A stretch of DNA of 64,000 nucleotides from an uncultured beta proteobacterium (lineage in GTDB: Bacteria; Pseudomonadota; Gammaproteobacteria; Burkholderiales; SG8-41). Positions 35,042-51,872 of this stretch are shown in pieces. A program made the translations under genes and the position numbers. How positions within the stretch are numbered: position 1 is the first letter of the stretch; each line of letters starts with the position of its first letter. The notes under the pieces are model-generated. The model did no database searches. It worked only from the letters and a program-made list of their open reading frames with translations, and was not told where the DNA came from. The DNA lies in the NCBI GenBank assembly GCA_902825845.1, contig CADECM010000001.1:98831-162830 (forward strand). Reading direction: 5' to 3'.

Positions 35042-35065
35042 GTATTGACAGCAGGATGTCAATAC
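35042..35065. promoter_or_regulatory. inverted repeat (candidate GntR/HutC operator)
   Basis: GTATTGACA-gcagga-TGTCAATAC: 9-bp perfect arms with a 6-bp spacer. It starts 2 bp after the -12 element and spans ATG 35056. Confidence 0.45.
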
Positions 35066-35871
35066 AAGTGATAGAGAGTGAAAAGGATCGTCAGGCTTCG
35101 CCGCTGACTGCGCGTGTCGTAGCGGATACGGCCTTGGGAGACACCTGCAATCCCTCCTCACCGATCCCGCTGTACTCGCAAATTCGCGAGCTTTTACGTG
35201 CACGCATCCTGGACGGCACGTATCGCTGCGATGTCAGGATGCCATCGGAAAACGACATGGTCAGGGCTTTCGGCGTGAGTCGCATCACGGTGCGCCAAGC
35301 CTTGAATGACCTCCAAAAAGAAGGCCTGATTTTCAAAATACACGGCAAGGGCACCTTTGTTGCGCGGCCAAAGGCGGTCCAGAACCTGATGCGTCTCGAG
35401 GGCTTTGGTGAAGCGATGTCGGCCGCTGGCCACTACACGCATTCCCGTGTGTTGGGACATAGGGTGATGCGTCCCCCTCGACATATATTGGCACGCCTTG
35501 CACTGGACGAGAAGTGCGAGGTAATGGAGATCCGCCGCATTCGCTACCTCAATCACGATCCCATTTCCCTGGATGTCACTTATGTGCCGGTTGAACTGGG
35601 GCAGCGCCTGATCAAGGAAGATCTGCCGCGCCGCGACGTCTTTCTCATTCTCGAGACTGATTACGGCTTCCGCCTGGATCGCGCCGAGTTGCGTATAGAC
35701 GCGACATTGGCCGACGCGGCGCTGGCGGAAGTCCTCGCGGTAGCAGAGGGTTCGCCTGTGCTGCGTATTGAGCGCCTTACGCTGGCACTCCCGGACCAGC
35801 CGATCGACTTCGAATATCTCTATTACCGGGGTGATGCATTTCAATACTTCATGATGGTCGGGCGTCGATAA
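35056..35871 (+). CDS. GntR-family transcriptional regulator, HutC subfamily (wHTH + UTRA effector domain)
   Basis: MPSENDMVRAFGVSRITVRQALNDLQKEGLI wHTH, and a C-terminal UTRA-length domain. Start is uncertain (ATG 35056, GTG 35068 or TTG 35134). Confidence 0.88.
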   Translation: MSIQVIESEKDRQASPLTARVVADTALGDTCNPSSPIPLYSQIRELLRARILDGTYRCDVRMPSENDMVRAFGVSRITVRQALNDLQKEGLIFKIHGKGTFVARPKAVQNLMRLEGFGEAMSAAGHYTHSRVLGHRVMRPPRHILARLALDEKCEVMEIRRIRYLNHDPISLDVTYVPVELGQRLIKEDLPRRDVFLILETDYGFRLDRAELRIDATLADAALAEVLAVAEGSPVLRIERLTLALPDQPIDFEYLYYRGDAFQYFMMVGRR

Positions 35872-35916
35872 GCGCGATATGCAGCAGCGCAGCCATCCAT
35901 TGCAAGGAAGCAAGAC

Positions 35917-37653
35917 GTGACAATGAAACTGATCGAGCTGGAAACCGACGTACTGGTTGTCGGTGGCGGAACCGCAGGTCCAATGGCCGCAGTGAAGGCG
36001 AAAGAGCGCAACCCCAAGCTTCGGGTGATGCTGCTGGAAAAGGCAAACGTCAAGCGCAGTGGCGCCATCTCCATGGGCATGGACGGGCTGAACAATGCGG
36101 TGGTGCCCGGTCATGCCACGCCTGAGCAGTACACCAAAGAGATCACGATTGCCAACGACGGCATCGTCAATCAGAAAACGGTCTACGCCTATGCGAACCA
36201 TAGCTACACGACGATACAGGAACTCGATCGCTGGGGTGTGAAGTTTGAAAAGGATGAGACCGGCGATTACGCCATGCGCAAAGTGCATCATATCGGCACG
36301 TATGTATTGCCGATGCCGGAAGGGCATCATATGAAGAAGGTGCTCTACCGGCAGCTCAAACGGGCGCGGGTGGACGTCACCAACCGGGTGGTGGCGACGC
36401 GCGTGCTGACGGATAGCAAGGGACAGGCGGCCGGTTTGCTGGGATTTGACTGCAGGAGCGGGGCGTTCGTGGTGGTGCGTGCGAAAGCCGTCATTCTGTG
36501 CTGTGGCGCGGCAGGGCGCATCGGTCTGCCGACTTCAGGTTATCTGTTCGGGACTTACGAAAATCCGACCAATGCGGGCGACGGATACAGCATGGCGTTT
36601 CATGCGGGTGCCGAACTCTCCAATCTCGAATGCTTCCAGATCAATCCGTTGATCAAGGACTACAACGGTCCGGCCTGTGCCTACGTCACCGGGCCATTTG
36701 GTGGCTATACCGCGAACGCCAGGGGGGATCGCTTCATCGAATGCGATTACTGGAGCGGGCAGATGATGCAGGAGTTCTATAACGAACTGCAAAGTGGCAA
36801 CGGCCCGGTATTCCTCAAACTCGACCATCTGGCTGAAGAGACCATACAGACCATCGAGCATATTCTGCATACCAACGAGCGGCCCAGCCGTGGGCGCTTC
36901 CACAGCGGACGTAAAACCAATTACCGCGAGCGGATGATTGAGATGCACATCTCCGAAATCGGCTTTTGCAGTGGCCACAGCGCGTCTGGCGTTTACGTCA
37001 ACGAGCGTGCCGAAACCACTGTGCCTGGCCTTTATGCGGCCGGCGACATGGCCAACGTACCCCACAACTACATGCTGGGTGCCTTCACTTATGGCTGGTT
37101 TGCCGGGACTAATGCGGCGGAATACTGCGCAAATTACGACGGTGGCACAGTGGATTCGGCGCAGATTGCGGAGGAGATGAACCGTGTTTCTGCTCCCTTA
37201 CGCCATGGCGGCGGACTGCCACCCTCGCAGGTGGAATACAAATTGCGGCGCATGGTCAACGACTATTTGCAGCCGCCCAAAGCGACCCGAAAAATGAAAC
37301 TGGCGCTTGAGCGATTCGACGAAATTGGCGAGGATATCGGGAACATTTCCGCCGAGAACCCGCACGAGTTGATGCGAGCAATGGAGGTGCAGGTGATTCA
37401 TGACTGTGCGCGCATGGCGGCCCATGCCTCGCTGTTCCGCGAAGAAAGCCGCTGGGGCCTGTATCACAACCGCGTGGATTTCCCCGAGCGCGACGACGTC
37501 GATTGGTTCACCCATTGTCATCTGCGCAAGGATGACGTGGGCGCCATGAGCAGCTTCAAAAAGGCAGTCGAGCCCTATTTGTTCCCGCTGGATGACAATG
37601 AGAAAAACGCCTATCAACGGCTGCGCGTGGTTGCGCCGGCGCGGACTGCATAA
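35917..37653 (+). CDS. AprA-like FAD flavoprotein (adenylylsulfate reductase alpha / fumarate reductase superfamily)
   Basis: 578 aa. DVLVVGGGTAGPMAA dinucleotide fold. LLEKANVKRSGAISMGMDGLNNA and AAGDMANVPHNYMLGAFTYG resemble AprA rather than the SdhA motif HGANRLG seen at 53977. Confidence 0.75.
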   Translation: MTMKLIELETDVLVVGGGTAGPMAAVKAKERNPKLRVMLLEKANVKRSGAISMGMDGLNNAVVPGHATPEQYTKEITIANDGIVNQKTVYAYANHSYTTIQELDRWGVKFEKDETGDYAMRKVHHIGTYVLPMPEGHHMKKVLYRQLKRARVDVTNRVVATRVLTDSKGQAAGLLGFDCRSGAFVVVRAKAVILCCGAAGRIGLPTSGYLFGTYENPTNAGDGYSMAFHAGAELSNLECFQINPLIKDYNGPACAYVTGPFGGYTANARGDRFIECDYWSGQMMQEFYNELQSGNGPVFLKLDHLAEETIQTIEHILHTNERPSRGRFHSGRKTNYRERMIEMHISEIGFCSGHSASGVYVNERAETTVPGLYAAGDMANVPHNYMLGAFTYGWFAGTNAAEYCANYDGGTVDSAQIAEEMNRVSAPLRHGGGLPPSQVEYKLRRMVNDYLQPPKATRKMKLALERFDEIGEDIGNISAENPHELMRAMEVQVIHDCARMAAHASLFREESRWGLYHNRVDFPERDDVDWFTHCHLRKDDVGAMSSFKKAVEPYLFPLDDNEKNAYQRLRVVAPARTA

Positions 37654-37670
37654 GACGAACAGGGGACCTC

Positions 37671-37904
37671 ATGCCAACCGCCATCAATCGCACCAGTGTT
37701 CCTGTCAGTGTTGACGACGAAAAATGCATCGCCCACAAAGGTTGCACGGTTTGTGTGGACGTATGTCCGCTTGACGTGCTGGCCATCGACATCGTGAAAG
37801 GCAAGGCCTACATGAAGTTCGACGAGTGCTGGTACTGCATGCCCTGCGAACAGGATTGCCCCACAGGCGCCGTCCACGTCGATATTCCTTACCTGTTGCG
37901 TTAA
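37671..37904 (+). CDS. 2x[4Fe-4S] ferredoxin, AprB-like ferredoxin domain only
   Basis: 77 aa. Cx5CxxCxxxCP plus CxxCxxCxxxCP (CWYCMPCEQDCP). KAY..CWxC context as in AprB. It lacks the C-terminal half of AprB. Confidence 0.75.
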   Translation: MPTAINRTSVPVSVDDEKCIAHKGCTVCVDVCPLDVLAIDIVKGKAYMKFDECWYCMPCEQDCPTGAVHVDIPYLLR

Positions 37905-37916
37905 GGCAGGTCGACT

Positions 37917-38885
37917 ATGAATGCGAATGTTACGACTTTCGTCCCCGGGGATTACCGCTCCCGTCTCACCGATCCGGACGCAGAGGTGCGGCGAATAGCC
38001 GTGATGGAATTACCCTATTGTGACGAAGCGGACTTCACGCAGTTGGGTCTGGCGGCACTGTCTGATGTCGTGCCAGCCGTGCGTGCCGAGGCCGCCAGGG
38101 CGCTGGAAGGGATCGAACAGGACGAGATCGTAGCGGCGTTGGCCGCGGCATTGCGTGATGTCGATGCCGACGTGCGCGAAGCGGCCGCGCAAACTCTGTC
38201 GGAACTCAAGGACCCCGCCATGGGAGCATACATCGTGCCGGTGCTGACGGATGATGACGCATTCGCAAGGGCTGCCGCTTTTCGCGCATTGCGGGAATTG
38301 CGCATCCCCGAAGTATTTGCAACGGCACGTGCCGCGCTGTGCGATGCCGCGCCGCGGGTGCGGCGGGAGGCGGTGTCCGTCCTCGGCTACCTTAAGAATC
38401 CAGACGGGTTGGGTGAGTTGACGCGCGTGGCAATGAATGATCCCGATGAGGAAGTCAGACGCATCGCGGTCGGCGCATTGGGGTACGCCACGGACGATCA
38501 AGTGCTGCCGGCCCTGACACATGCGCTCAAAGACGTCTCGTGGCAGGTGCGGGAAGAGGCGGCGAGCACGCTGGGAAAAGTCGGGCCGCGGGATGCCGTC
38601 GATAGTATGTTGCCGGTTCTGGAAGACAGTTACAGGCAGGTGCGCATACGCGCCATTCGTAGTTTGGGACGATTGAAGGCACGCGAAGCAGTGGCGGCGA
38701 TTATCGAAATGCTTGAACACCCCGTCAGCAACGTGCGCAAAGAATCGGCGATCGCACTGGGGGAGATTGGCGACACCAAAGCGATACCGGCTCTCGAGAA
38801 GGCGCGTCAGGATGCGGATCCGGATGTGCGCAAACTGGCGCAGATTGCACTGGCCACAATGACTCGCCAGTACGCAACCAAGTGA
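37917..38885 (+). CDS. HEAT-repeat (PBS-lyase HEAT-like) protein
   Basis: 322 aa of roughly 30-aa repeats of the form D-x-D/E-x-x-VR-x-x-A-x-x-x-L-G. Confidence 0.85.
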   Translation: MNANVTTFVPGDYRSRLTDPDAEVRRIAVMELPYCDEADFTQLGLAALSDVVPAVRAEAARALEGIEQDEIVAALAAALRDVDADVREAAAQTLSELKDPAMGAYIVPVLTDDDAFARAAAFRALRELRIPEVFATARAALCDAAPRVRREAVSVLGYLKNPDGLGELTRVAMNDPDEEVRRIAVGALGYATDDQVLPALTHALKDVSWQVREEAASTLGKVGPRDAVDSMLPVLEDSYRQVRIRAIRSLGRLKAREAVAAIIEMLEHPVSNVRKESAIALGEIGDTKAIPALEKARQDADPDVRKLAQIALATMTRQYATK

Positions 38886-38898
38886 AGGCACGCAAGTG

Positions 38899-39225
38899 AT
38901 GGCACATGTGGCGACGATAGGTTTTATCGATGGCGGATTCACAAACTGCGTGAATGTCTGTCGGTTCGATTCTGTTCAGGAAGGGCTGAATTTACCCGCA
39001 CTTTATCGGGATGATTGTAGCGATTGGATGCAGTGTGTGGCCGAGTCTCTGGAGAAAGCCAATTTCGAGGCCGGTGAAGTCACCCTACCGCAGAAGCACT
39101 TTGCCGGGTTTAAAGAACGCAGTGCAACAGCATGGCCGGTCATTACGGAAAGGCGCGAGCCGCTGCGGGAAGCGGCACGTTGGTCAGGCGTTATTCCAAA
39201 ACTGGCGCAAGTGAAGGACGTTTGA
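38899..39225 (+). CDS. Azotobacter-type (7Fe FdxA-like) ferredoxin homolog with degenerate cluster-binding cysteines
   Basis: 108 aa. Aligns without gaps to my recollection of A. vinelandii FdI (WP.ITE..PL, W.GV..KL conserved). Only Cys16, 20, 39 and 45 are retained. Cys8, 11, 24, 42 and 49 are replaced by F, G, S, W and S. Confidence 0.7.
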   Translation: MAHVATIGFIDGGFTNCVNVCRFDSVQEGLNLPALYRDDCSDWMQCVAESLEKANFEAGEVTLPQKHFAGFKERSATAWPVITERREPLREAARWSGVIPKLAQVKDV

Positions 39226-39267
39226 GCAGGCATGGTTGGTCGTGGATATTTAAAGGAGATGGGCATC

Positions 39268-40731
39268 ATGACGACGGGCGAACGCAGTATTGGTGCTACC
39301 TTGGGGAAATTCAAGGCGCTGCGCGGTATGGTTGTGGGCGGATGCATGGGCGCGGTCCTGCTGTCTGCGGCTTCACAAGCCCAGACCACGATCAAGATCG
39401 GCATTGGCACACAGAACACGACTACCAACACCGTTACCGGGGGCATGGTCATCAAGGAGCTCAAACTGCTTGAAAAACATCTGCCGCGGACGGGGAAATA
39501 TGCCAAGGTGACGTACGAGTTCGACTGGCAGAACGCCACGTCCGGACCACCCATCACCAACGGCATGATGGCCGATAAGATCCAGATTGGCATGATGGGC
39601 GACTATCCGCTATTGGTCGCTGGCGCGACCGGACAGGCGACGAGGAATGAGACACAACTGATCGCAGTCATTGCCTACAACCAGTTTGGCGCAGGTAACG
39701 GTGTTGTGGTGCACAAGGATTCTCCGTACTATGAATTGTCTGATTTGAAGGGAAAGCTGCTGTCAGTCCCCTTCGGCTCGGCGGCGCACGGCATGATGCT
39801 GCAGGCGATGCAGGCAAGAGGCTGGCCGGATACATTCTGGAGGTTGGTGAGTCAGTCGCCGGAAGTCGGAACCACCAATCTGCAGGAAAAACGCATCGAC
39901 GGTCACGGCGACTTTGTGCCGTTTGCTGAATTGCTGCCGTATCGTGGTTTCGCGCGCAAGATCTTCGACGGTGCAGAAACCAAGGTTCCAACCTTTCATG
40001 GCGTGGTGATTCGCAAGGATTTCGGCGAGAAATATCCTGAAATTGTGGTTGCCTACATCAAGGCGTTGATGGAAGCAAACGACTGGGTCCGCAAAGATCC
40101 GAAGGTCGCGATGACCAAAGTCGAAGAGTGGACCAAGATCGAGAAGGAAGTGGCCTACGTTTTCCTCGGACCCAGCGGCATCCACACATTGGATCCGACG
40201 ATCAAGCCGAAGTGGGTCGAGACAATCGGCGTCGTATATGACGTGCTCAAGAAGATGGGGCGCGTGAAAGCCTTCGATGTGAAAGCGTGGATCAATGAGA
40301 GCTATCTCAAGCAAACGTACAAGGAACTGAATCTCGATTACGACAAGCAGAAGGCCTCGTTTGCGGGTTATGAAATTGCCGGCAAAGATACGCTGTGTAA
40401 CGGCACGATCACCAAACCTCGCGAAGCTGGAGAAATCTGGATCTCCGGCGCAGACATTGTCCCGTTCAGCTCCACCGTTTGCACCCTGGCTGCCATCAAA
40501 AAGCTGCAAGGCGAAGGCAAGAAGATCGCTGTGGCCTATGTGTTCGATAAGTCGCTCGGCATCAAGATGTTCGCGGACAAGGCCTTTTACGCGGTCAACG
40601 CCACAGATCCCCAAAAGCCCCTGATTGCGCCCTTCCTGCTAAAAAAGGATGCCGAAGCGCATGTCGCCAAGGGGGGCGGCAAGCTTGCCTCGTATGCCGA
40701 GGCGCTGGCCGCGGCAAACATCGGCAAATAG
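39268..40731 (+). CDS. ABC transporter substrate-binding protein (NMT1/SsuA/TauA-like) with extra C-terminal NosL-like domain
   Basis: Signal peptide MVVGGCMGAVLLSAASQA. ATG 39268 lies 9 nt after AAGGAG. The last ~125 aa resemble NosL (FSSTVC..., AFYAV...PLIAPFLLKKDAEAHVAKGGGKL). Confidence 0.8.
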   Translation: MTTGERSIGATLGKFKALRGMVVGGCMGAVLLSAASQAQTTIKIGIGTQNTTTNTVTGGMVIKELKLLEKHLPRTGKYAKVTYEFDWQNATSGPPITNGMMADKIQIGMMGDYPLLVAGATGQATRNETQLIAVIAYNQFGAGNGVVVHKDSPYYELSDLKGKLLSVPFGSAAHGMMLQAMQARGWPDTFWRLVSQSPEVGTTNLQEKRIDGHGDFVPFAELLPYRGFARKIFDGAETKVPTFHGVVIRKDFGEKYPEIVVAYIKALMEANDWVRKDPKVAMTKVEEWTKIEKEVAYVFLGPSGIHTLDPTIKPKWVETIGVVYDVLKKMGRVKAFDVKAWINESYLKQTYKELNLDYDKQKASFAGYEIAGKDTLCNGTITKPREAGEIWISGADIVPFSSTVCTLAAIKKLQGEGKKIAVAYVFDKSLGIKMFADKAFYAVNATDPQKPLIAPFLLKKDAEAHVAKGGGKLASYAEALAAANIGK

Positions 40732-40753
40732 CGCGTGAGTGAGGAGCCGCTTC

Positions 40754-41680
40754 ATGGACAGTGTGCATGTACTGCGCAAGGCGGAGCCTCCGGTGAAAGA
40801 CTATCGGAGCGAAGTCGATCCGGCGCCGCCAAAAGGGCGTGGCACAGCATTGTCTGCTGCGCCGGCGATTCCACCCAATTCAGCAGCGATATGGTTGCGC
40901 AGCAAGGGCGTCAGCATGCTGCTATGGGTCGTCTCGCTTGGCATCATGCTCGCCTTCTGGTACGTCGTCACCCGCTACAAACTCGAGTTCTACATCCGCT
41001 TTGTTAACGTGCCGACGCCAGCAGAAGTTATGCAAAAAGTGGTCGAGGTCAATCAGTCCGGTAAATTTCTGGTGAATATCGGCTACAGCGTTCGCCGCAT
41101 TCTGATCGGATTTTCCATCGCTGTGGTGCTGGGTGCAGCCATGGGATTGCTGATCGGCCGATATCGCTTTATGCGCGATATGTTATTTCCCATCTGCGAG
41201 GTGTTGAGACCGATCCCCGCGATTGCATGGGTGCCAATGGCGATCATGTTGTGGCCGACCAACGAGGTGAGCATCGTATTCATCACCTTTATGGGCTCAT
41301 TCTTCCCGATCCTGATCAATACCATCCACGGTGTGCACTCGATTGATCCGGTATTGATACGCGCCGCGCGCAGTCTCGGAGCCAACGAGTACCGCCTGTT
41401 CGCGAATGTAATTTTGCCTGGCGCAATGCCGCATATTTTTACCGGATTCTCCGTGGGCATGGGTGTGGCCTGGGTATCGCTGATTGCCGCGGAGATGATC
41501 TCGGGACAGTTCGGTATCGGTTATTTCACGTGGGAGGCTTATTCGCTGGTCAGTTACGCCGAAATTGGGCTTGGCATGATCACCATTGGTGTTCTTGGAC
41601 TGGCGTGTAGTGGGGCTATTCAAATCACGGGCAAGCTCTTGATGCCTTGGGCTTCCTATGCCGGAGCAGAAAAGAAATGA
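40754..41680 (+). CDS. ABC transporter permease (NitT/TauT family)
   Basis: Six-TM BPD-type permease with an EAA-like loop (IRAARSLGANEYRLFANVILPGAMP). GAGGAG RBS 7 nt before ATG 40754. Confidence 0.88.
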   Translation: MDSVHVLRKAEPPVKDYRSEVDPAPPKGRGTALSAAPAIPPNSAAIWLRSKGVSMLLWVVSLGIMLAFWYVVTRYKLEFYIRFVNVPTPAEVMQKVVEVNQSGKFLVNIGYSVRRILIGFSIAVVLGAAMGLLIGRYRFMRDMLFPICEVLRPIPAIAWVPMAIMLWPTNEVSIVFITFMGSFFPILINTIHGVHSIDPVLIRAARSLGANEYRLFANVILPGAMPHIFTGFSVGMGVAWVSLIAAEMISGQFGIGYFTWEAYSLVSYAEIGLGMITIGVLGLACSGAIQITGKLLMPWASYAGAEKK

Positions 41681-42537
41681 ATGGCAATTCCAAAGGTGCC
41701 ATCGACATTCACGATCTTGGCGTCGTTTTCATTGCTGGTGACACCAGGGTCGAGGCCGTGAGCGCCGTAAACATGAACATCAAGCCGGGAGAATTTGTTT
41801 CGCTGATCGGCCCTTCCGGATGCGGCAAATCGACATTGCTCAACATCGTTGCCGGATTTGTGCAGCCCAGTTTCGGTGCCGCATCGATTGATGGCGCGAC
41901 AATAAAGGGGCCTGGATCAGAATGCGGTGTGGTATTTCAGCAATATTCGCTTTTTCCCTGGTTGTCGGTAAGAAAAAACGTTGAGTTTGGCCTGAAAATG
42001 AAAGGTGCTCCGGCTTCGGTGCGGGAAACTCAGGCTCGAACCTTGCTCGGATTGGCAGGGCTCCTGGCGTTTGAAAATCACTATCCTGATCAACTGTCGG
42101 GCGGCATGAAGCAGCGGGTCGGCATCGTTCGCGCGTTGGCGACCAGTCCGCAGGTGCTGCTGATGGATGAGCCGTTCGGTGCGCTCGACGCGCAAACGCG
42201 GGTGGTGATGCAGGAAATCCTAACCAACATGTGGCAGCGCTTCCGCATCTCGGTGCTTTTTGTTACCCATGATATCGAGGAGTCGATTTTTCTCTCCGAC
42301 AGGATTTATGTAATGACCGCGCGTCCCGGGCGTATCAAGGCCGAAATCATAGTGCCGCTTGCCAGGCCGCGCACGCCGGAAATGACCGCGTCCGCCGAGT
42401 TCATTGCCATGGTGCAACAGCTGAAGCGGTTGATACGCGAAGAGTCACTGGCGGCGATGGGCGCGGAGTTGAAGGACGGAGGACTAAGCGGGTTTGGCAC
42501 GGCGGTGGGCCCAAGCGGTATTGCTGAAATGATATGA
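41677..42537 (+). CDS. ABC transporter ATP-binding protein (NitT/TauT family)
   Basis: Walker A GPSGCGKST, signature LSGGMKQR, Walker B LLMDEPFGALD. ATGA overlap with the permease. Confidence 0.93.
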   Translation: MNGNSKGAIDIHDLGVVFIAGDTRVEAVSAVNMNIKPGEFVSLIGPSGCGKSTLLNIVAGFVQPSFGAASIDGATIKGPGSECGVVFQQYSLFPWLSVRKNVEFGLKMKGAPASVRETQARTLLGLAGLLAFENHYPDQLSGGMKQRVGIVRALATSPQVLLMDEPFGALDAQTRVVMQEILTNMWQRFRISVLFVTHDIEESIFLSDRIYVMTARPGRIKAEIIVPLARPRTPEMTASAEFIAMVQQLKRLIREESLAAMGAELKDGGLSGFGTAVGPSGIAEMI

Positions 42538-42547
42538 GTGCGGAGTC

Positions 42548-45500
42548 ATGAAGCCTGGCCGGCCCGATTTGGTGCGGCCAGTGGAAATCAGGCTGCGTAC
42601 GGCGGCAAAGGTGCTGGAAATGGACTGGCAGGATGGTTCGTCTTCAATTTGGGCGCATAGCGTGTTGCGAGAAAGCTGCCGGTGTGCCGGTTGCACGGCT
42701 GAGCGTCGCAGGGGCAAGGCAGTGGTGGCGGCGGCAGATATCATTCTAATCGAGGTAATGCCTTATGGTTCTGGTGCGTTGTGTTTCAGTTTCAGTGACG
42801 GACACAAGCGCGGCATATACCCATTTGAGTACCTGCGACAGTTGGCAGGCCGCAGCATTCCCAACGTTCCTACGGGTCCGGTAGCCACAGCGCGTGTTGA
42901 GGGGATTGCCATGATCGGCGATAATCCAAAACTTTTACACACATTGCGTGAAAACTTGATAGCACCTGTACGCACATCCCCAGCGCTTGCGCTTCGTTTC
43001 GGGTATTCATTTCTCGATTTGTACGATGGCGAGGCCTTGGCACGCCTTGATGCTACGTTCCTCGGCTACGTGGCGACGGCGGAAGCTGCGCTGCGAGATC
43101 GCGTCGTTTCCGCTCGTCAGGATAGCGCAGGACTCAGCGCAAAAATGGAGTCCGAGCTGCTACTGGCGCTAACGCCACATATTGATGCATTTCTCGGTGA
43201 ACTATTTGGCATTGAGAATGAAATCGCCACGCTGTCGGGTGCGCACCATGACTTGGCGCCGCTCTATTCCGTGAAGCGCTTGTTCGTCCAGCGTAAGGCC
43301 GCAAACAAATACAAGGGTGATGCCGCCCTTCAACTGGATGGTCCGGAACTTGCCGCGAGGCTGGCTCCGATGCTGGGAGATGCGCTCACTGAGTTGGGTT
43401 TTGCGAAAAAGGTCCTTGAGTGGCAGCAAGACGAGGCAGGACATGTTGAGCAGCTTGAATTGGCGCTGCAGTATGCGGCGTGGGCTTTGCTGACGCCGGC
43501 CGGACAGCGGAAACACCATGATGGCGTTTTGTTCAAGGCGCCGCATAAACTCGACGCGCAGCATCTGGTGCCGACCACAGTGGATACCAGGCAGGGTTAT
43601 TCCACGCATACCTTTCCGGTTGAAAAGTTGCGCCGGAGGGAAGGTTTCAAACTCACCGACAAGGGCGCCGATCTGACGGGCGCGCTGGATCAGGCAAATT
43701 ATTGCATCTGGTGTCATGAGCAAGGCAAGGATTCCTGTTCCAAGGGCCTGCTGGAAAAAGGCGCCACTGGCCGCGGCGTGGCTTCGTTCAAAAAGAGTCT
43801 GTTTGGCGTAACGCTCGCCGGGTGTCCGCTGGAAGAGAAGATTTCCGAGTTTCACAAGGCCAAGACCGCCGGTTATGCCATTGGCGCGCTGGCGATCATT
43901 ACGGTGGACAACCCGATGGCGGCCGCCACCGGACATCGCATCTGCAACGATTGCATGAAGGCCTGCATTTACCAGAAGCAGGAGCCGGTGGATATTCCGC
44001 AGGCGGAAACGCGCACGCTGAAGGACGTGCTGGGGTTGCCGTGGGGTTTTGAGATTTACAGCCTGCTGACGCGCTGGAATCCGCTGAATTTGCGCAACCC
44101 GTATCCGAAGGCGGCCAGCGGCAAGCGCGTGCTGATTGCGGGCATGGGGCCGGCGGGATTTGCGCTTGCGCACTATCTGATGAACGACGGGCACAGCGTG
44201 GTGGGCATCGATGGATTGAAGATCGAACCTTTGCCCGCGAATCTTTCTGGCGTGGATGCGGCGGGCCGGCGCGTGCCGTTCACGCCGATCCGCGATATTC
44301 GCGACTTGTATGAGCGGCTGGACGAGCGGGTGATGGCCGGTTTTGGCGGCGTGGCAGAATATGGCATTACCGTGCGATGGGACAAAAATTTCCTAAAAAT
44401 CATAAGGTTATTGCTGGAGCGCCGGTCACAGTTCGCGCTCTTCGGCGGCGTGCGTTTTGGCGGCACTGTCACTGCGGAAGACGCCTTTGCGATGGGATTC
44501 GACCACGTGTCTCTGGCGATCGGCGCGGGACGGCCGACGGTGCTGGACATGCCGAACGGGCTGGCACGCGGCGTGCGCACGGCCTCGGATTTCCTGATGG
44601 CACTGCAGCTCACCGGCGCTGCGCGCACCGATTCCATCGCCAATATGCAGTTGCGTCTGCCGGTGGTGGTGGTGGGCGGCGGGCTGACGGCGATCGACAC
44701 CGCCACCGAGTCGCTGGCGTACTATCCGCTGCAGGTCGAAAAATTTCTCAAGCGCTACGAAGCCATGGCGCGCGAGCACGGCGAAATGGCGGCGCGCCTT
44801 GCCTGGAACGAGGAAGAGCGCATTATCGCCGATGAATTTCTCGCGCATGCGCGCGCCCTGCGCGAGGAGCGTGCCCGGGCAGCCCCGGAAAATCGCGAGC
44901 CGCGAATCGCCGAACTGTTACAGGCGTGGGGAGGGGCGACCATTGCCTATCGCAAACGCCTGGTTGACAGCCCTTCTTACACACTGAATCACGAAGAGGT
45001 ACACAAGGCGCTCGAAGAAGGCATACGCTTTGCTGAAGGCTTGACGCCCACGGCGGTTGAAGTTGATTCTTATGGTCACGCCGCGGCGTTGAAGGTCGCG
45101 GCCGGCGAGCGTGCGTTCACGCTGCGCGCACGCACCATTCTGATTGCTGCCGGTACGCAGCCGAACACCGTGTTGGCGCGCGAGGATGCCGCCCACTTCA
45201 AACTCGACGGCCGCTATTTTCAGGCTGTGGATTCTGCAGGTAATCCGGCGTCGGCCGAGAAGGCAATCGCAAAGCCCAATGAAATCAATGTGTTACTGTC
45301 AAGGCTCGCAGATGGCCGCTGCATGAGTTATTTCGGTGACGTGCATCCATCGTTTTTTGGCAATGTGGTCAAGGCGATCGGCAGCGCGAAGCAGGGTCAT
45401 CCCGTGGTCAGCCGGGTTCTCGAGGCGGTTCGTCCCGCGGCGATCATCGATGATGAAGCCTTTTTCGCGCGTCTAAACGACGACTTGCGTGCCACGGTGC

Positions 45501-46468
45501 ACGAGGTGAAGCGTCTAACGGCGATGATTGTTGAAGTAGTGGTGCGAGCCCCGCTGGCCGCGCGTCGCTTTCAGCCGGGGCAGTTTTACCGCTTGCAGAA
45601 TTTTGAATCGATCGCGCCCCGTCTGGAAGGCACGCGGTTGGGTATGGAAGGCTTGGCGCTGACCGGCGCATGGGTGGACCGTGAACGCGGCCTTATTTCC
45701 ACCATTGTGCTGGAGATGGGCGGGTCCAGCGATCTGTGCCTGCTGTTGAAGCCGGGAGAGCCGGTGATTCTCATGGGGCCCACTGGTACGCCGACGGAAA
45801 TCCCCGCAAACGAGACCGTTGCGCTGGTGGGCGGTGGACTGGGCAATGCGGTGCTGTTTTCCATTGGGCAGGCCATGCGCAAGGCGGGCAACAAGGTACT
45901 GTATTTTGCCGGCTACAAAAAAATGACCGACCGCTACAAAATCGAGGAAATTGAAGCCGCGGCCGATGTGGTGGTGTGGTGCTGTGACGACGAACCGGGC
46001 TTCACACCGACGCGAGCGCAGGACAAGACGTTTGTGGGGAATATCGTGCAGTGCATGCATGCCTATGCGATAGGCGATCTCGGTGTACAACCGATCCCAC
46101 TGCGGAATGCCGATCGCATTATCGCCATCGGCTCGGACCGCATGATGGCAGCGGTGGCGCGCGCGCGTCACGACATCCTGAAGCCGTTCGTCAAGCCGCA
46201 TCATTTCGCGATCGGTTCCATCAATTCGCCGATGCAGTGCATGATGAAGGAAATCTGCGCGCAATGCCTGCAGGCGCATGTGGATCCGGCAAGCGGCAAG
46301 ACAAGTTATGTGTTCTCGTGTTTTAATCAGGATCAACCGCTCGATCAAGTGGATTGGAGTGGTCTGAATCAGCGTTTGCGGCAGAACGCCGTGCAGGAAA
46401 AACTAACCGCGGAATGGCTGGATTATTGTCTGATCAAATCAGGCGCGCGCGAGATGCAGCGAATTTAG
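42548..46468 (+). CDS. 1306-aa multidomain oxidoreductase: DUF971 (GBBH-like N) + unknown ~270-aa region + GltD/NfnB-like FeS/FAD/NAD(P) module + PyrK/NfnA-like FNR module with C-terminal [2Fe-2S] motif
   Basis: aa 44-49 CRCAGC plus His86 (DUF971 Zn site). Cys386/389/397/426/466/469/473 with GCPLEEKI (GltD-type). GMGPAG (aa 532-537) and GGGLTA (aa 710-715) Rossmann motifs. FQPGQFYRL and LVGGGLGNA (FNR-like). C1231-x5-C-x2-C-x17-C1258. Confidence 0.75.
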   Translation: MKPGRPDLVRPVEIRLRTAAKVLEMDWQDGSSSIWAHSVLRESCRCAGCTAERRRGKAVVAAADIILIEVMPYGSGALCFSFSDGHKRGIYPFEYLRQLAGRSIPNVPTGPVATARVEGIAMIGDNPKLLHTLRENLIAPVRTSPALALRFGYSFLDLYDGEALARLDATFLGYVATAEAALRDRVVSARQDSAGLSAKMESELLLALTPHIDAFLGELFGIENEIATLSGAHHDLAPLYSVKRLFVQRKAANKYKGDAALQLDGPELAARLAPMLGDALTELGFAKKVLEWQQDEAGHVEQLELALQYAAWALLTPAGQRKHHDGVLFKAPHKLDAQHLVPTTVDTRQGYSTHTFPVEKLRRREGFKLTDKGADLTGALDQANYCIWCHEQGKDSCSKGLLEKGATGRGVASFKKSLFGVTLAGCPLEEKISEFHKAKTAGYAIGALAIITVDNPMAAATGHRICNDCMKACIYQKQEPVDIPQAETRTLKDVLGLPWGFEIYSLLTRWNPLNLRNPYPKAASGKRVLIAGMGPAGFALAHYLMNDGHSVVGIDGLKIEPLPANLSGVDAAGRRVPFTPIRDIRDLYERLDERVMAGFGGVAEYGITVRWDKNFLKIIRLLLERRSQFALFGGVRFGGTVTAEDAFAMGFDHVSLAIGAGRPTVLDMPNGLARGVRTASDFLMALQLTGAARTDSIANMQLRLPVVVVGGGLTAIDTATESLAYYPLQVEKFLKRYEAMAREHGEMAARLAWNEEERIIADEFLAHARALREERARAAPENREPRIAELLQAWGGATIAYRKRLVDSPSYTLNHEEVHKALEEGIRFAEGLTPTAVEVDSYGHAAALKVAAGERAFTLRARTILIAAGTQPNTVLAREDAAHFKLDGRYFQAVDSAGNPASAEKAIAKPNEINVLLSRLADGRCMSYFGDVHPSFFGNVVKAIGSAKQGHPVVSRVLEAVRPAAIIDDEAFFARLNDDLRATVHEVKRLTAMIVEVVVRAPLAARRFQPGQFYRLQNFESIAPRLEGTRLGMEGLALTGAWVDRERGLISTIVLEMGGSSDLCLLLKPGEPVILMGPTGTPTEIPANETVALVGGGLGNAVLFSIGQAMRKAGNKVLYFAGYKKMTDRYKIEEIEAAADVVVWCCDDEPGFTPTRAQDKTFVGNIVQCMHAYAIGDLGVQPIPLRNADRIIAIGSDRMMAAVARARHDILKPFVKPHHFAIGSINSPMQCMMKEICAQCLQAHVDPASGKTSYVFSCFNQDQPLDQVDWSGLNQRLRQNAVQEKLTAEWLDYCLIKSGAREMQRI

Positions 46469-46545: not shown

Positions 46546-47634
46546 ATGAACCTTGGCTTTTTTACCATGCCCATCCATCCGCCGGAGCGCAACTACACGC
46601 AAACGCTGAAGGAGGATCGCGAGGCCATTCTGTTGGCTGACAAATTGGGCTACAGCGATGCCTTCATTGGCGAGCACACGACGGATATCTGCGAAAATAT
46701 CCCATCGTGTCTCGCGTTTATCGCAAGTCTTGCGCACGAAACGCGACAGATCAAGCTGGGCAGCGGCACTGTAAACCTTCCGAACGGTCATCCGGCCGCC
46801 ATCGCAGCGAACGTTGCAATGGTCGATCACATGCTGGAAGGGCGCTTCCTGTTCGGAATTGGGCCAGGCGGCTTGCGTTCGGATCAGGAAGTGTTCGGCA
46901 ATATCAAGAACGACCGCACGCGAATGTTCGTCGAGTCAATCGATCAGATTCTCGCTATTTGGGACGGCAAGCCGCCTTACGACATCAAGGGCGAATTCTG
47001 GAACATCAGCACGGGTGAAACCATGATCCCCGAAGTGGGGCAGGGGGTGATGCTGAAACCGTACCAGCAACCGCATCCGCCGATCGTCGTCACCGTGGTC
47101 GAACCCTTTTCCAAGGGCGTTGCGGCTGCGGCGCAGCGTGGCTGGAAACCCATTTCGGCCAACTTTCTGCAGCCCAACTGGGTGAAAACGCATTTCACCA
47201 GCTATCAGCAGGGCTGTGAAATTGCCGGGCTGTCGGCCAAGCGCGAGGATTGGCGCGTCTGCAAAAGCATCTTTGTCGCCGATGACGATGCCACAGCAAT
47301 GCGCTACGCCAAGACGCTCGAGGGGCCTTACGGTTTTTATTTCTGGAACTTGCTGACCAAGCGCAAGGCGCGTGGCGCAGCGAACATCTACAAACCCGAT
47401 CTGGCGATGCCTGATGAGGCAGTAACGGTGCAATTTGTGCTGGATACACTGGTTATCGCGGGCAGTGTCAATTCCGTTGTGGATCAGTTGCTGAAGTTTC
47501 GCGAGACCACCGGTGACTTTGGCACTTTGCTATATTGCGGACATGACTGGGTGGATCCGACGCTGGCACGGCGATCCATGCAACTCATGGCGGAACAGGT
47601 AATGCCGCGCGTGAATGCGGCGATTCATGCGTAA
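46546..47634 (+). CDS. LLM-class (luciferase-like) flavin-dependent monooxygenase, LimB-like subgroup
   Basis: 362 aa. MNLGFFTMPIHPP...GYSDAFIGEHTTD...KLGSGTVNLPNGHPAAIAANVAMVDHMLEGRFLFGIGPGG is typical of the bacterial luciferase family. Confidence 0.82.
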   Translation: MNLGFFTMPIHPPERNYTQTLKEDREAILLADKLGYSDAFIGEHTTDICENIPSCLAFIASLAHETRQIKLGSGTVNLPNGHPAAIAANVAMVDHMLEGRFLFGIGPGGLRSDQEVFGNIKNDRTRMFVESIDQILAIWDGKPPYDIKGEFWNISTGETMIPEVGQGVMLKPYQQPHPPIVVTVVEPFSKGVAAAAQRGWKPISANFLQPNWVKTHFTSYQQGCEIAGLSAKREDWRVCKSIFVADDDATAMRYAKTLEGPYGFYFWNLLTKRKARGAANIYKPDLAMPDEAVTVQFVLDTLVIAGSVNSVVDQLLKFRETTGDFGTLLYCGHDWVDPTLARRSMQLMAEQVMPRVNAAIHA

Positions 47635-48132: not shown

Positions 48133-48993
48133 TCACTTTTCCCAGACACCCGGATTACGTTGCGCCGCAGCGCAACGCCATGCGCGCCGTGCGAAGAACA
48201 ATGCATCCTTGCTGGCAGGGTCGCGCGCCTGCCAAGTGGTCGCCAGACTCGATAATGCTTCGCATTTGCCCGAGGCAAACAGTGATGCTGCGCGCACAAA
48301 CGCGGGCTGTGCATCGCCCCGTCGCTTCCAGAATGGCGTTTGCAGCTCATCCGAGGTACGTCCCGCGCGATTCTTCATGAGCGTGCTCACCCATTCGACA
48401 GGTACGGCAAAGTGAAACGGGCCTCCCGCAAGGCATTTGAACGTAAGGACACCAACCAGTTTGTCGTCGCGATCAAACAGCCCCCCGCCACTCTTGCCGG
48501 GACTGAACGTTGCCGACCCCTGGACGACGCGCCCGCGACCTTTGTAGGTGAATAACCCCTCGATGTGACCCTGGGTGACCGACATGTCGGCCCCCTTTGC
48601 AAATCCGATGGCGACGATGGTGTCGCCTTCCTTTTTCGAAGTGGTGTCCCCGAAGGCTACGACGGTGCCCGTGAGACCGGGAACATGAAGCAGGCATACA
48701 TCGCGTTCTATGTCCGCGCGTATCAGTTGCCCGCGCTCAGGTACAAGTCGGGTGATTACCCGAATGTCCCACGCGTCACGCACGACATGGCAGTTGGTTA
48801 CCAACGTTGCCTGAGCAACCAGCACGGCGGAACCGTAGCGCGTTTGTCCACCGGCGTCGTGCGCTTCAAGACGAAAGATGCTGTCAGCGAGGCGTGTCAA
48901 CGCAGGTTCTCCCGCGGCGTGACCAGGCGCGCACGACATTGCGGCACAGGCAAAAGCCAGCGAGAAAAACCATCGGGCGGCCAGATTCAGCAT
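48133..48993 (-). CDS. secreted trypsin-like (S1 family) serine protease
   Basis: Signal peptide. Catalytic contexts TNCHVV (His), ERDVCLL (Asp) and PGKSGGGLF (Ser). ~85-aa C-terminal extension. Confidence 0.8.
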   Translation of the reverse strand: MLNLAARWFFSLAFACAAMSCAPGHAAGEPALTRLADSIFRLEAHDAGGQTRYGSAVLVAQATLVTNCHVVRDAWDIRVITRLVPERGQLIRADIERDVCLLHVPGLTGTVVAFGDTTSKKEGDTIVAIGFAKGADMSVTQGHIEGLFTYKGRGRVVQGSATFSPGKSGGGLFDRDDKLVGVLTFKCLAGGPFHFAVPVEWVSTLMKNRAGRTSDELQTPFWKRRGDAQPAFVRAASLFASGKCEALSSLATTWQARDPASKDALFFARRAWRCAAAQRNPGVWEK

Positions 48994-49112
48994 GCCGATA
49001 GCATGCGCTACTCTCGCGGCGCGCGGCTATAAGTAAGACTGCCTACAGAGTGCCCACGGTGCAGGCGGGACTGTGCCGATATGACGTAAGATATTGATTA
49101 TACGTAATTTAT

Positions 49113-50555
49113 TTAAACGGCAAAGTGATCAACAAACTCGTGCACCGGGGTGTCCTCCAGCTTTTTCTGGTCTTTGCACAAGTTGTAAATGGTCGTGCGC
49201 TGCTTGTCCGCAAAGCGCCGCGCCAGATTGGTTCTGAATTTCGCCTCGAGCAGCGGAATCCCGTCCTTGCGCCGGCGGCGATGGCCGATGGGATATTCGA
49301 CGGCGACATTGGCGGTCTTGCTGCCATCCTTGAAGAACACCTGCAAGGCATTGGCAATGGAACGCTTTTTCGGATCGAGATAATCGCGGGTCCACGGTTT
49401 GTGCTCCACGCACACCATTTTGTTGCGCAGCGCATCCACGCGTGGATCGCGCGCAACCGCTTCTTCGTAATCCGCGGCCGTCAGATTGCCCTTGATCAGA
49501 CCGATCGCGCACATGTATTGGATGCAGTGATCGCGATCGGCGGGATTGTTGAGTGGCCCGCTCTTGTCGATGATGCGTATCGCCGACTCGTGCGTGGTGA
49601 TGACAACCTGCTTGATGTCATGCAAGCGGTCTTTAACCTCGGGATGCAGTCTGACGGCGCACTCCACGGCAGTCTGCGCATGAAACTCCGCAGGAAATGA
49701 AATCTTGAACAATACGTTTTCCATGACATACGCCGCGTACGGCTGCTTCAGCACAAAGGGCTGCCCCTTGAACAGCACGTCATAAAAGCCCCAGGTTTTG
49801 GCTGTCAGTGCCGTGGGGTAACCCATTTCGCCTCGCTGCGCCATCAGCGCCAAGCGCACGCCGCGGCTGGTTGCGTCTCCGGCGGCCCACGACTTGCGCG
49901 AGCCGGCCTGCGGCGCATGGCGATAGGCGCGCAGCGACTGGCCATCGATCCATGCATTCGATACTGCATTGACGATTTCGTCATGGCTGCAGCCAAGCAT
50001 ATGGGCAACCACCGCAGTCGTGGCCACCTTGACCAGCACCACGTGATCGAGTCCCACGCGATTGAAACTGTTTTCAAGTGCAATCACGCCCTGAATTTCG
50101 TGCGCCTTGATCATGGCAGTAAGCACTTCGCGCATGGTCAGCGGTTTCCTGCCCGCGGCAACTGCGTTGCGCGACAACCAGTCTGCCACGGCCAGAATGC
50201 CGCCCATATTGTCCGAGGGGTGGCCCCATTCCGCGGCCAGCCATGTGTCATTAAAATCCAGCCAGCGGATCATGCAGCCGATGTTGAACGCGGCCATTAC
50301 GGGATCGAGCTGGTATGACGTGCCGGGCACTTTTGCGCCATTGGGCACGATGGTGCCTGGGACAATGGGCCCCATCAGCTTGGTGCACGCGGGGTAGGTC
50401 AGCGCTTCAAGCCCGCAGCCGAGGGTATCCATCAGGCACAACCGCGCGGTGTTGTAGGCCTCGGCACTGCGGATCGTATATTTCGCGGCGTAATTCGCGA
50501 TGTCGGTGATGACTTTGTCGGGTTTGGTGCGGGTGTTGGAGATGGCGGCGGTCAT
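49113..50555 (-). CDS. prpD: 2-methylcitrate dehydratase
   Basis: 480 aa. Near-colinear high similarity to E. coli PrpD as I recall it ([31 protein letters not shown]). Confidence 0.93.
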
Positions 50556-50572
50556 GGTTTCTTTTGAAAGGC

Positions 50573-50647
50573 GTGAACGAGTGAACGGGTGAACGAGTGA
50601 ACGGGTGGGGTGTGCGATGTTACTCGTTCACCCGTTCACTTGTTCAC
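50573..50647. repeat. octamer-periodic hairpin repeat (GTGAACGR x4, loop, inverted YCGTTCAC x3)
   Basis: GTGAACGA GTGAACGG GTGAACGA GTGAACGG ... CTCGTTCAC CCGTTCAC TTGTTCAC, in the prpC-prpD spacer. The prpC stop codon lies in the last unit. Confidence 0.8.
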
Positions 50648-51795
50648 CGATTTTTGAGCGGTACGAACTGGCGATTCTCCGGTCCCCGGTAAAGCGCGGT
50701 GGGCCGGATCAGCTTGTTGTCCAGACGCTGTTCCATCACGTGCGCCGCCCAACCGGCGGTGCGCGAGATGACGAAAATCGGCGTGAACATCAGGGTCGGC
50801 ACGCCAAGTTTGTTGTAAGACACGGCAGAGAACCAGTCAAGATTGGCGAACATGGTTTTTTCGCGCATCATCACCGCTTCGATGCGGTCGGCAACGTCAA
50901 ACATTTTCATGTCGCCCGTATCCTGTGACAGCTTGCGCGCGACTTCCTTGATGATTTTGTTGCGCGGATCAGCCACCGTGTACACGGCATGGCCGAAGCC
51001 GATGATGGTTTCTCTTTTGCGCACGCGAACGATGATGTCGGCTTCGGCATCGTCCGGCGTTTCATAACGGTTCATCACTTCAAAGCCGACCTCATTGGCA
51101 CCGCCATGCTTGGGGCCGCGCAGCGCGCCCACACCGCCGACGATCGCGGAGTGCATGTCGGCGCCGGTGCCCGCCACCACGCGGCAGGCGAAGGTGGAGG
51201 CGTTGAATTCGTGCTCCGCATACAGATTGAGCGAGGTATGCATGGCGCGCACCGCGGGCGCCGTTGGCACACTGCCGTGCAGCAGGTGCAAAAAATGGCC
51301 ACCGATGGAATCGTCGTCGGTTTCGACGTCGATGCGCTTGCCGTTGGTGCTGTAGTGATACCAGTAGAGCAGCATGGAGCCGAACGAAGCTATCAGGCGG
51401 TCGGCAATATCACGCGCACCGGGCACGTTGTGATCTTCTTTTTCGGGCAGCACGCAGCCCAGTGCCGAACAGCCGGTGCGCATCACGTCCATGGGGTGCG
51501 CAGCGGGCGGCAGGGTTTCGAGCACTTGCTTGACCACCTGGGGCAGCCCGCGCAGCGTTTTTAGCTTGGCCTTGTAGTTGGCCAGTTCCGCCGCGTTGGG
51601 TAGTTTGTCGTGAATCAACAGATAGGCGACCTCTTCATACTCGCAAGTCTCGGCGATGTCATAGATATCATAGCCACGATAGTGCAAGTCATTGCCGCTG
51701 TGACCCACGGTGCACAGCGCGGTGCTTCCGGCGGCGATGCCCGACAGGGCAACGCCTCTTTTTTCGCGCACGATGGGCTGTTCGTTGCTGCTCAT
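50644..51795 (-). CDS. prpC: 2-methylcitrate synthase
   Basis: 383 aa. Very similar to E. coli PrpC as I recall it ([43 protein letters not shown]). Confidence 0.93.
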
Positions 51796-51816
51796 GATGA
51801 TTTCCTTTCAGTCTTC

Positions 51817-51860: not shown

Positions 51861-51872
51861 AAATTCAGACGC

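Follow-up and report, generated by a model that had tools for sequence, protein, structure and literature searches.

The family NF005128 (PRK06567) is catalogued as 'putative bifunctional glutamate synthase subunit beta/2-polyprenylphenol hydroxylase', and its members consist of a helical N-terminal domain (RP005_N, named for Rickettsia RP005), a Fer4_20-type domain, FAD/NAD(P)H domains and a C-terminal PyrK-like module, with seven plus four cysteines. It occurs in aerobes (among them Nitrosomonas, Gallionella, Rickettsiales, Acidobacteria and Burkholderiales), and no biochemical or functional study of the RP005/PRK06567 family was found in the literature searched. DUF971 is a zinc-ligand domain (CxCxxC plus His) present in stand-alone bacterial proteins (PDB 3luu, 2l6p) and in HCF101, and it has been tied by fitness data to Fe-S maintenance (bioRxiv 10.1101/072470).

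Both types of sequence were found in one open reading frame of the window, that is, the whole stretch of 64,000 nucleotides that was analysed. The part order and cysteines of NF005128 are shared over aa ~150-1306, and the window differs from the members of that family by an additional read-through N-terminus. The zinc-ligand domain is shared with the stand-alone DUF971 proteins and with HCF101; unlike the former, the DUF971 gene of the window lacks a stop codon, and whereas in HCF101 the fusion of DUF971 to an Mrp-type scaffold is a conserved architecture, the junction in the window is not conserved.

The ORF at 42548-46468 (+ strand) was confirmed to be open over 1306 codons. Its domain order is far above chance expectation, the sole oddity being the absence of a stop codon behind the DUF971 domain. 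Very probably, the ORF represents two genes read as one, a DUF971 gene and a gene for an RP005/PRK06567-type iron-sulfur flavoprotein with its own promoter. The four-part architecture arises from a single base, and the protein is much more ordinary than it appeared. Neither the 1306-aa product nor the 1185-aa product was recorded in exact-sequence look-ups. The features of the locus are detailed in Table 1.

Table 1. Features of the DUF971-RP005 locus and of the cassette upstream of it.
Feature	Position	Strand	Evidence
Upstream cassette	35056..42537	+	Pfam, NCBIfam; conserved in 80 loci; annotated example L172
GntR	35056-35871	+	Pfam/NCBIfam
FrdA/AprA-like flavoprotein	35917-37653	+	Pfam/NCBIfam
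77-aa ferredoxin	37671-37904	+	Pfam/NCBIfam
HEAT protein	37917-38885	+	Pfam/NCBIfam
Degenerate FdxA-like protein	38896-39225	+	Pfam/NCBIfam
SsuA-like binding protein	39232-40731	+	Pfam/NCBIfam
Permease	40739-41680	+	Pfam/NCBIfam
ATPase	41647-42537	+	Pfam/NCBIfam
DUF971 (GBBH-like_N) gene	42548..42838	+	Pfam, PDB 3luu_A, invariant residues, ortholog P0384/L173
Read-through segment, aa 98-136	42839..42955	+	Stop codons of relatives fall here; conservation 0.08 over aa 101-150
1-nt length difference	42883..42883	+	GGTAGCC in window vs GGTAAGCC in L173
Promoter-like element of large gene (TTGAGG, 17 nt, GATAAT)	42897..42925	+	Consensus scan, DNA conservation
RP005/PRK06567-type iron-sulfur flavoprotein	42956..46468	+	NF005128 E 1.3e-241; homolog starts; start context
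RP005_N helical domain, aa ~151-331	42998..43540	+	PF27156 on homologs; AlphaFold2
GltD/NfnB-type cluster domain, 7 invariant Cys	43703..44008	+	Fer4_20 23.5 bits; Cys conservation; GltD chain 7mfm_I
FAD + NAD(P)H Rossmann domains (GMGPAG, GGGLTA)	44120..45427	+	Pyr_redox_2; 5jca_L; Foldseek 5jfc_L, 5vj7_A
PyrK/NfnA-like FAD/NAD module, C-terminal [2Fe-2S] motif	45488..46465	+	NF004862; 4ylf_A; 5jca_S; invariant Cys

Residues 14-97 corresponded to Pfam GBBH-like_N/DUF971 (PF06155; E 2.5e-17, 63.8 bits against a cut-off of 22.8), and PDB 3luu_A matched the same part at E 1.3e-14. The zinc ligands C44, C46, C49 and H86 were invariant across 78 DUF971 orthologs and are all kept in the window. The closest ortholog (P0384, locus L173) was 72% identical and is a separate protein of 117 aa. 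In all 75 other loci the gene has its own stop codon 0-47 aa past the domain, and DUF971 is a separate gene in L001, L002, L008, L085, L091, L094, L096-L098, L126 and L173. It is the terminal gene of the cassette in 70 of 80 conserved loci; in L138, DUF971 and the RP005-like gene adjoin in reverse order. A DUF971 sequence downstream of the large gene in L044 was set aside; it belongs to a 487-aa ORF, probably of the GBBH/TauD type, whose N-terminal domain it forms.

The initial annotation treated DUF971 as an extra N-terminal domain of a fused protein; that it is an evolved domain was contradicted by the comparison with relatives: the domain was absent from all 120 closest database proteins, which begin at query aa 122-166, the two genes are separate wherever they adjoin elsewhere (no fusion in 13 loci with adjacent genes), and one base is missing at the junction. 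When aa 1-260 were searched against 5.8 billion proteins, RP005_N fragments only and no fusion were retrieved. A phmmer search of 1.84 billion representatives, clustered at 50% identity so that close fused relatives could hide, returned the junction only in P0242, a chimeric 305-aa fragment that spans it. With aa 1-121 as query, two stand-alone DUF971 proteins of 117 aa and no fusion were obtained, and a metagenome scan gave five loci, none of them fused. None of the protein collections searched contained a full-length DUF971-RP005 fusion.

A frameshift joining separate genes, which the initial annotation had named as a possible artefact to be checked against orthologs, was indeed found. From the FEYL codons to TTGAGG, the window has 73 nt, one fewer than the 74 nt of its closest relatives, L173 and L001; the missing base lies at an AA dinucleotide, 15 nt ahead of the expected stop. 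Addition of one A after 42883 yields a 117-aa DUF971 protein ending in ...VSHSAC*, comparable with L173 (117 aa, ...VSPTTC*), and the out-of-frame TGA at 42898-42900 is the DUF971 stop in L001 and L173. This restoration of the exact ortholog length with a similar VSxxxC* ending, together with the position of the AA site and the lack of full-length fusions in the collections, supports a sequencing or assembly error, in which case DUF971 (117 aa) and the RP005-like gene would be two genes in the organism, just as they are in L173 and L001. Such an error is a serious possibility, a little short of an even chance. Against it, 17 neighbouring genes over about 20 kb showed no frameshift with respect to their orthologs, so that the assembly is not generally indel-prone; AA is not a long homopolymer; and the 73-nt spacing, with the junction likewise in frame, recurs in an independent metagenomic fragment (L083/P0242).

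The clean surrounding assembly and the occurrence of the same state in L083 are also consistent with a real and recent stop-loss, neutral or mildly harmful, in a lineage where the cassette is partly decaying; this account is plausible, with a likelihood somewhat below one half. It is further favoured by the neighbouring FdxA-like gene, which has lost at least five cluster-ligand cysteines and is ~50% identical to its orthologs, versus 64-88% for its neighbours. However, every invariant residue of DUF971 is kept. Identity to orthologs is 88% for both the FrdA/AprA-like flavoprotein and the 77-aa ferredoxin, so that the cassette is not decaying overall.

In the window, the DUF971 tail lacks one base by comparison with the closest relatives, and this puts the usual TGA, located inside the putative -35 box of the downstream gene, out of frame; the reading frame then continues through promoter and leader into the large gene. 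Since there is no in-frame stop at the junction, a chimeric protein can be made: transcripts from the cassette promoter would give the 1306-aa chimera, while those from the promoter of the large gene would give the normal large protein.

The promoter-like element TTGAGG-17 nt-GATAAT was found by consensus scan and is kept as DNA in 10 loci, cassette-less loci included; it is non-coding in L002, L091 and L085. Of 94 loci, 40 have the hexamer [GT]ATAAT ahead of the large gene, whereas it occurs in 2.1% of random windows. On the basis of consensus match and conservation, the element is predicted to be the promoter of the large gene. The TGA, GAGG and ATG at 42898-42913 had also been considered as stop codon, ribosome-binding site and start, a reading replaced by that of a promoter because the same DNA is non-coding in the three loci mentioned and the -10 box is widespread. 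Residues 98-136 comprise a non-conserved DUF971 tail followed by a part whose counterpart in relatives is intergenic DNA, promoter or 5' leader; family conservation over aa 101-150 is 0.08, and the stop codons of relatives fall within aa 98-136. The "linker" is no linker but the read-through promoter and 5' leader of the large gene itself, which are conserved. The native start of the large gene is most likely TTG 42956 (aa L137), where the context AACTTGA/ATTTTGA is conserved, the alternative being ATG 42911 (aa M122).

The widespread order of the cassette is GntR, FrdA/AprA-like flavoprotein, ferredoxin, HEAT protein, sulfonate-type ABC importer and DUF971, and it was found in Burkholderia, Pseudomonas and Cupriavidus. 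The large gene is absent from 73 of the 80 cassette loci and present in seven, its position next to the cassette being conserved within one clade. Placement of the ORF inside a transport/catabolic operon was therefore partly upheld, as the adjacency is clade-conserved, and partly weakened by the gene's own promoter-like -10 box and by relatives (L089 and L090, 85% identity) in which the large gene comes immediately after folD and the cassette is missing. The arylsulfonate desulfonation cluster asfRABC has a similar composition, with reductase, ferredoxin and sulfonate-binding protein (PMC4267179). Identification of the cassette as asfAB/asfRABC was rejected: its regulator is of the GntR type, versus the LysR-type AsfR, and the asfA marker primers asfAF1all and AsfBtoA found no target: in-silico PCR on about 170 loci, allowing up to 3 mismatches, produced no amplicon. 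A plasmid search returned generic annotations only.

A further reading is an evolved functional fusion, in which DUF971, proposed to maintain Fe-S clusters, would be physically joined to the Fe-S flavoprotein that it serves. The fitness data cited above, the adjacency of DUF971 and the RP005-like gene in one clade (in reverse order in L138) and the in-frame junction of L083 speak for it. Nevertheless, no other full-length protein carries the fusion, the linker corresponds to promoter and leader DNA and shows no conservation at the protein level, the two genes are unfused in the closest relatives, which differ by one base, and DUF971 is found in 70 of 80 cassettes but the large gene in only seven, which makes such a fusion very improbable. 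Likewise unlikely is a natural DUF971-RP005 chimera made whenever the cassette is transcribed, on the premise that the missing base is real and with the in-frame junction recurring in L083. If true, the chimera would be Rosetta-stone evidence that DUF971 acts on this single-chain Nfn-like flavoprotein, and would suggest that in one Burkholderiales clade the cassette of FrdA/AprA-like flavoprotein, ferredoxin and HEAT protein has the Nfn-like flavoprotein as its NAD(P)H-linked redox partner.

Residues ~137-1306 match NCBIfam NF005128/PRK06567 and Pfam PF27156 RP005_N, and all 120 closest proteins have the same core architecture in a single chain of about 1150-1210 aa. The NF005128 match (E 1.3e-241, 804.6 bits) aligned aa 152-1126 with positions 6-929 of the profile (length 1031) and shows clear homology; as the score lies below the equivalog cut-off of 1072, the large protein is placed in a betaproteobacterial branch of this family, outside the Rickettsia-type equivalog. 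The DUF971, GltD/NfnB-like and PyrK/NfnA-like assignments of the initial annotation were borne out by Pfam, NCBIfam and PDB matches. Within aa ~105-380, where no motif had been recognised there, aa ~150-330 are the domain PF27156 RP005_N, an assignment shown through homologs, for which this domain is precomputed over the aligned stretch in the 120 closest proteins and the aa 1-260 matches. Its AlphaFold2 model is all-helical (pLDDT 88.9), and no PDB neighbour was found for it by Foldseek (best E 1.8).

In the cluster domain, C386, C389, C397, C426, C466, C469 and C473 were invariant in 81 family members. Fer4_20 scored 23.5 bits, just under its cut-off of 25.8, the domain aligned with GltD chain 7mfm_I, and it may hold two [4Fe-4S] clusters, of which one would have a ligand other than Cys. 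Residues 527-721 matched Pyr_redox_2 (E 4.8e-12) and the FAD/NAD(P)H domains 5jca_L (E 9.5e-9). The PyrK/NfnA-like module (aa 981-1306) matched NF004862 (E 5.4e-19), 4ylf_A NfnA (E 9.8e-13) and 5jca_S (E 2.7e-10), and its C1231, C1237, C1240 and C1258 were invariant in the same 81 members. Foldseek returned 5jfc_L (1.3e-11), 5vj7_A (2.6e-11) and 5jca_S (2.3e-5) from a low-confidence model; the whole-core model has a mean pLDDT of 63, too poor for judging module docking.

As judged from homology, the core is most likely a single-chain NAD(P)H:ferredoxin oxidoreductase, an analogue of NfnB-NfnA, and the general proposal of an Nfn/Sud-type enzyme is supported by the NfnA/NfnB matches. NAD(P)H would reduce the FAD of the GltD-like module, and two [4Fe-4S] clusters would carry electrons on to a ferredoxin; the PyrK-like module, with its [2Fe-2S] cluster and the second FAD, would exchange electrons with a second pyridine nucleotide in one direction or the other. 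In about 9-10 of 82 loci, the gene directly upstream of the large one encodes an FdxA-type ferredoxin.

The main outcome is the removal of a false lead, the core family being already catalogued. Worth knowing are RP005/PRK06567 as a widespread family of large single-chain NfnB-NfnA-like proteins, whose helical N-terminal domain has no solved structural relative, and the conserved FrdA/AprA-like flavoprotein, ferredoxin, HEAT and DUF971 cassette. For annotation, ORF "fusions" from a single assembly need an ortholog check ahead of functional reading.

Among known systems, NfnAB/NfnI, the NADH-dependent reduced ferredoxin:NADP+ oxidoreductase, and Xfn are the best sequence and fold matches of the core, with an identity of only about 18-26%. 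The GltD-like module resembles NfnB/NfnI-L (4ylf, 5jca, 5jfc) and Xfn (5vj7) in its two cluster sites, FAD and NADPH site, and the PyrK-like module resembles NfnA/NfnI-S in FAD and [2Fe-2S]. NfnAB is a two-subunit heterodimer, whereas the window and its 120 closest homologs have one chain in B-then-A order with an extra RP005_N. The [2Fe-2S] motif of the window has four cysteines and is PyrK-like; the published NfnA structure reportedly has three Cys and one Asp at this cluster. The B-A fusion with a helical N-domain, initially regarded as unusual, proved to be standard in NF005128/PF27156. GltD-like/PyrK-like single-chain fusions, as in the window, are also represented by NF009415 (PRK12779) and NF009414 (PRK12778), which are much shorter (752-944 aa), lack RP005_N and gave weak matches (E 1e-27 to 1e-31); NF009415 carries its PyrK-like part at the C-terminal end (profile 650-935 of 944), the same as in the window.

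The reading frame was open over 1306 codons, and every motif listed in the initial annotation was found in it. Pfam domains are given in the table below. The middle of the protein was NfnB/GltD-like (PDB 5jca_L, E 1e-8) and the C-terminal module PyrK/NfnA-like (NCBIfam NF004862, E 5e-19; PDB 4ylf_A, E 1e-12, and 5jca_S, E 3e-10). The domain calls of that annotation stand, and its claims of novelty do not: the core belongs to an already catalogued, uncharacterised family, of which it is a further member, and the "fusion" to DUF971 is a one-base read-through.

Coordinates of the features in the window and in the comparison loci
Sequence	Feature	Position	Strand	Details
Window	Cassette	35056-42850		Annotations generic only, as in loci L092-L171 and L172
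Window	FdxA-like ORF	38896-39225	+	109 aa
Window	Open reading frame	42548-46468	+
Window ORF	GBBH-like_N/DUF971 (Pfam)	aa 14-97		E 2.5e-17
Window ORF	NF005128 (PRK06567; NCBIfam)	aa 152-1126		E 1.3e-241
Window ORF	Fer4_20 (Pfam)	aa 424-487		23.5 bits, slightly under the cut-off of 25.8
Window ORF	Pyr_redox_2 (Pfam)	aa 527-721
Window	Site of the missing A	after 42883
Window	Putative promoter	42897-42925		TTGAGG, 17 nt, GATAAT
Window	-10-like box	42920-42925
Window	Native start of large gene, as placed	42956		TTG; alternative ATG at 42911
Window	Luciferase-like monooxygenase	46546-47634	+	Downstream of large gene
Window	Trypsin-like peptidase, PrpD/MmgE family protein, citrate synthase family protein, malate dehydrogenase	48133-52862	-	Unrelated to the ORF
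L044	ORF with N-terminal DUF971 domain	3331-4794		487 aa; just downstream of RP005-like gene
L083	P0242	5001-5918		305 aa
L138	RP005-like paralog	16842-20739		1194 aa

The top NCBIfam match of the core was NF005128 with 804.6 bits, the equivalog cut-off of 1072 not being reached. Among 5.8 billion proteins searched, 7995 matched at E ≤ 1e-10. The best 120 of these were 74-85% identical and 1075-1210 aa long (1150-1210 aa in all but two), with alignments beginning at query residues 122-166 except in two N-terminally truncated entries. All 120 carried PF07992, almost all PF27156 ("RP005_N") and most PF14691, and PF06155 was absent from every one of them. The helical region, described as lacking a recognisable motif, thus has a Pfam family (PF27156), and the order helical, GltD-like, PyrK-like, taken to be unusual, proved to be the norm of the RP005/PRK06567 family. 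Relatives are encoded in at least 598 stretches of species-representative genomes; the matches listed include Nitrosomonas, Nitrosospira, Gallionella, Bryobacteraceae, Stellaceae and Rickettsiales. The cluster domain has seven cysteines, and the C-terminus four, that were invariant across 81 family members. The helical domain was modelled with confidence as an all-helical fold (pLDDT 88.9), for which Foldseek found no PDB neighbour (best E 1.8). The whole-core model was poor (pLDDT 63); at that quality, its best matches were NfnI-L, Xfn, NfnABC, StnABC, DPD and GltD, and those of its C-terminal part NfnI-S, NfnA and PyrK.

In the genomic context of the closest homologs (L001, L002 and L091), DUF971 is a separate gene of 103-114 aa directly upstream of the large gene, and it has its own stop codon in 13 of the 13 other loci with this arrangement. 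Its ORF ends 0-47 aa (median 4) past the domain in 75 other loci. The closest relative of the DUF971 part, P0384 on locus L173 (72% identity), is 117 aa long and ends in TGA, the large gene beginning 10 nt further on. DNA alignment revealed a single gap of 1 nt in the window (GGT-AGCC against GGTAAGCC), and 73 nt separate the conserved FEYL codons from the TTGAGG element in the window, compared with 74 nt in L173 and L001. Addition of one A restores a DUF971 protein of 117 aa ending in ...VSHSAC*, where that of L173 ends in ...VSPTTC*; the fusion therefore hangs on one base, 15 nt ahead of the expected stop.

This base may be missing through a real mutation or through an artefact. That just one base is missing, that its restoration gives the exact ortholog length and that no full-length fused protein occurs in any collection searched favour an artefact, whereas a real mutation is favoured by 17 neighbouring genes without frameshift against their orthologs, by the adjacent FdxA-like gene, which is without most cluster ligands, and by an independent metagenomic fragment (L083/P0242) sharing the 73-nt spacing and the in-frame junction. 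In P0242, a DUF971 tail and a linker of the same length are followed by some 105 aa of RP005_N and then by a GGDEF domain; the ORF is itself the product of a chimeric assembly or else what remains of a rearranged gene.

Sequence conservation indicates that the "linker" is the putative promoter and leader of the large gene. The conserved TTGAGG/GATAAT element scores as a sigma-70-type promoter and is present in 10 loci, among them the cassette-free L017, L045 and L084. In L002, L091 and L085 it does not code for protein: stop codons flank it there, and the "GDN" peptide lies in a different frame from the gene. Of 94 loci, 40 have a [GT]ATAAT hexamer upstream of the RP005-like gene, the frequency in random windows being 2.1%; the -10-like box is often extended (TGnTATAAT or CGATAAT; L003-L097, many genera). 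A conserved TTG start context follows the hexamer after 25-40 nt, and the first residue of five homologs corresponds exactly to L137; on these grounds the native start was placed at TTG. The native protein would have a mass of about 128 kDa and the chimera one of about 143 kDa.

Species-representative genomes were scanned with the FrdA/AprA-like flavoprotein of the cassette, whose window copy matches NF006131 over its cut-off (1093.8 bits). The 80 loci obtained came from Burkholderia, Paraburkholderia, Cupriavidus, Ralstonia, Pseudomonas, Caballeronia and others; the cassette, which is widespread, also occurs in Acinetobacter. The loci carried the 77-aa ferredoxin (80), GntR (78), the HEAT protein (77), DUF971 (70) and the genes of the sulfonate-type ABC importer (62-65); the FdxA-like gene (9) and the RP005-like gene (7) were also found. 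An annotated Paraburkholderia sprentiae plasmid encodes, in this order, GntR, flavoprotein, ferredoxin, binding protein, permease, ATPase, HEAT protein and DUF971. NF010374 (898 aa) joins flavoprotein and HEAT protein, which suggests that the two work together. On the basis of fitness data, a role for DUF971 in maintaining Fe-S clusters has been put forward (bioRxiv 10.1101/072470); the zinc ligands of the domain do not vary among orthologs and are kept in the window. The 487-aa ORF of L044 may be a GBBH/TauD-type dioxygenase. The FdxA-like ORF has lost at least five cluster-ligand cysteines kept by orthologs at the equivalent place in the cassette (L002, L085, L095, L138) and is only about 50% identical to them, against 64-88% for neighbouring genes; it is a gene in decay or else a cluster-free ferredoxin fold. 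The cassette resembles the arylsulfonate system asfRABC in composition (PMC4267179, PMC2864759), but its regulator is GntR, and the published primers for the asfA marker yielded no product in silico from about 170 loci; the cassette is not classed here as asf.

Gene order in the window is ppsA, pyrG, kdsA, eno, ftsB, folD, the cassette and then the large gene. In L089 and L090, whose large proteins are 85% identical to that of the window, folD is followed by the large gene directly (L089) or after two unrelated genes (L090). A search with the large protein recovered 82 other loci, and in 77 of them the neighbours were variable; the commonest close one was an FdxA-type ferredoxin directly upstream (about 9-10 loci). 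In a neighbour-joining tree, all cassette-linked copies except L138 fell in one clade, with L126 and L098 near its base; it also takes in those cassette-free copies that are nearest to the window. In L138, a distant proteobacterial MAG, a paralog 33-43% identical over aligned stretches lies inside the cassette (ATPase, RP005-like, DUF971), opposite to the gene order of the window. The single clade and this arrangement make a functional link between the window-type cassette variant and the large enzyme plausible, and we regard the case for it as evenly balanced. The large gene is no simple member of an operon. None of about 160 related loci contained the luciferase-like monooxygenase, whose placement is specific to the arrangement of this genome.

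No functional literature on the RP005/PRK06567 family was found. Judged by its motifs, the core would most likely function as an NAD(P)H-linked ferredoxin oxidoreductase, and it may couple two nucleotides as Nfn does; the predicted cofactor content is 2 FAD, 2 [4Fe-4S] and 1 [2Fe-2S]. It has in common with NfnB the cofactor-binding motifs for two cluster sites with seven cysteines, FAD and NAD(P)H, and with NfnA/PyrK those for FAD/NAD and a [2Fe-2S] cluster with four cysteines, the latter placed after the NfnB-type part.
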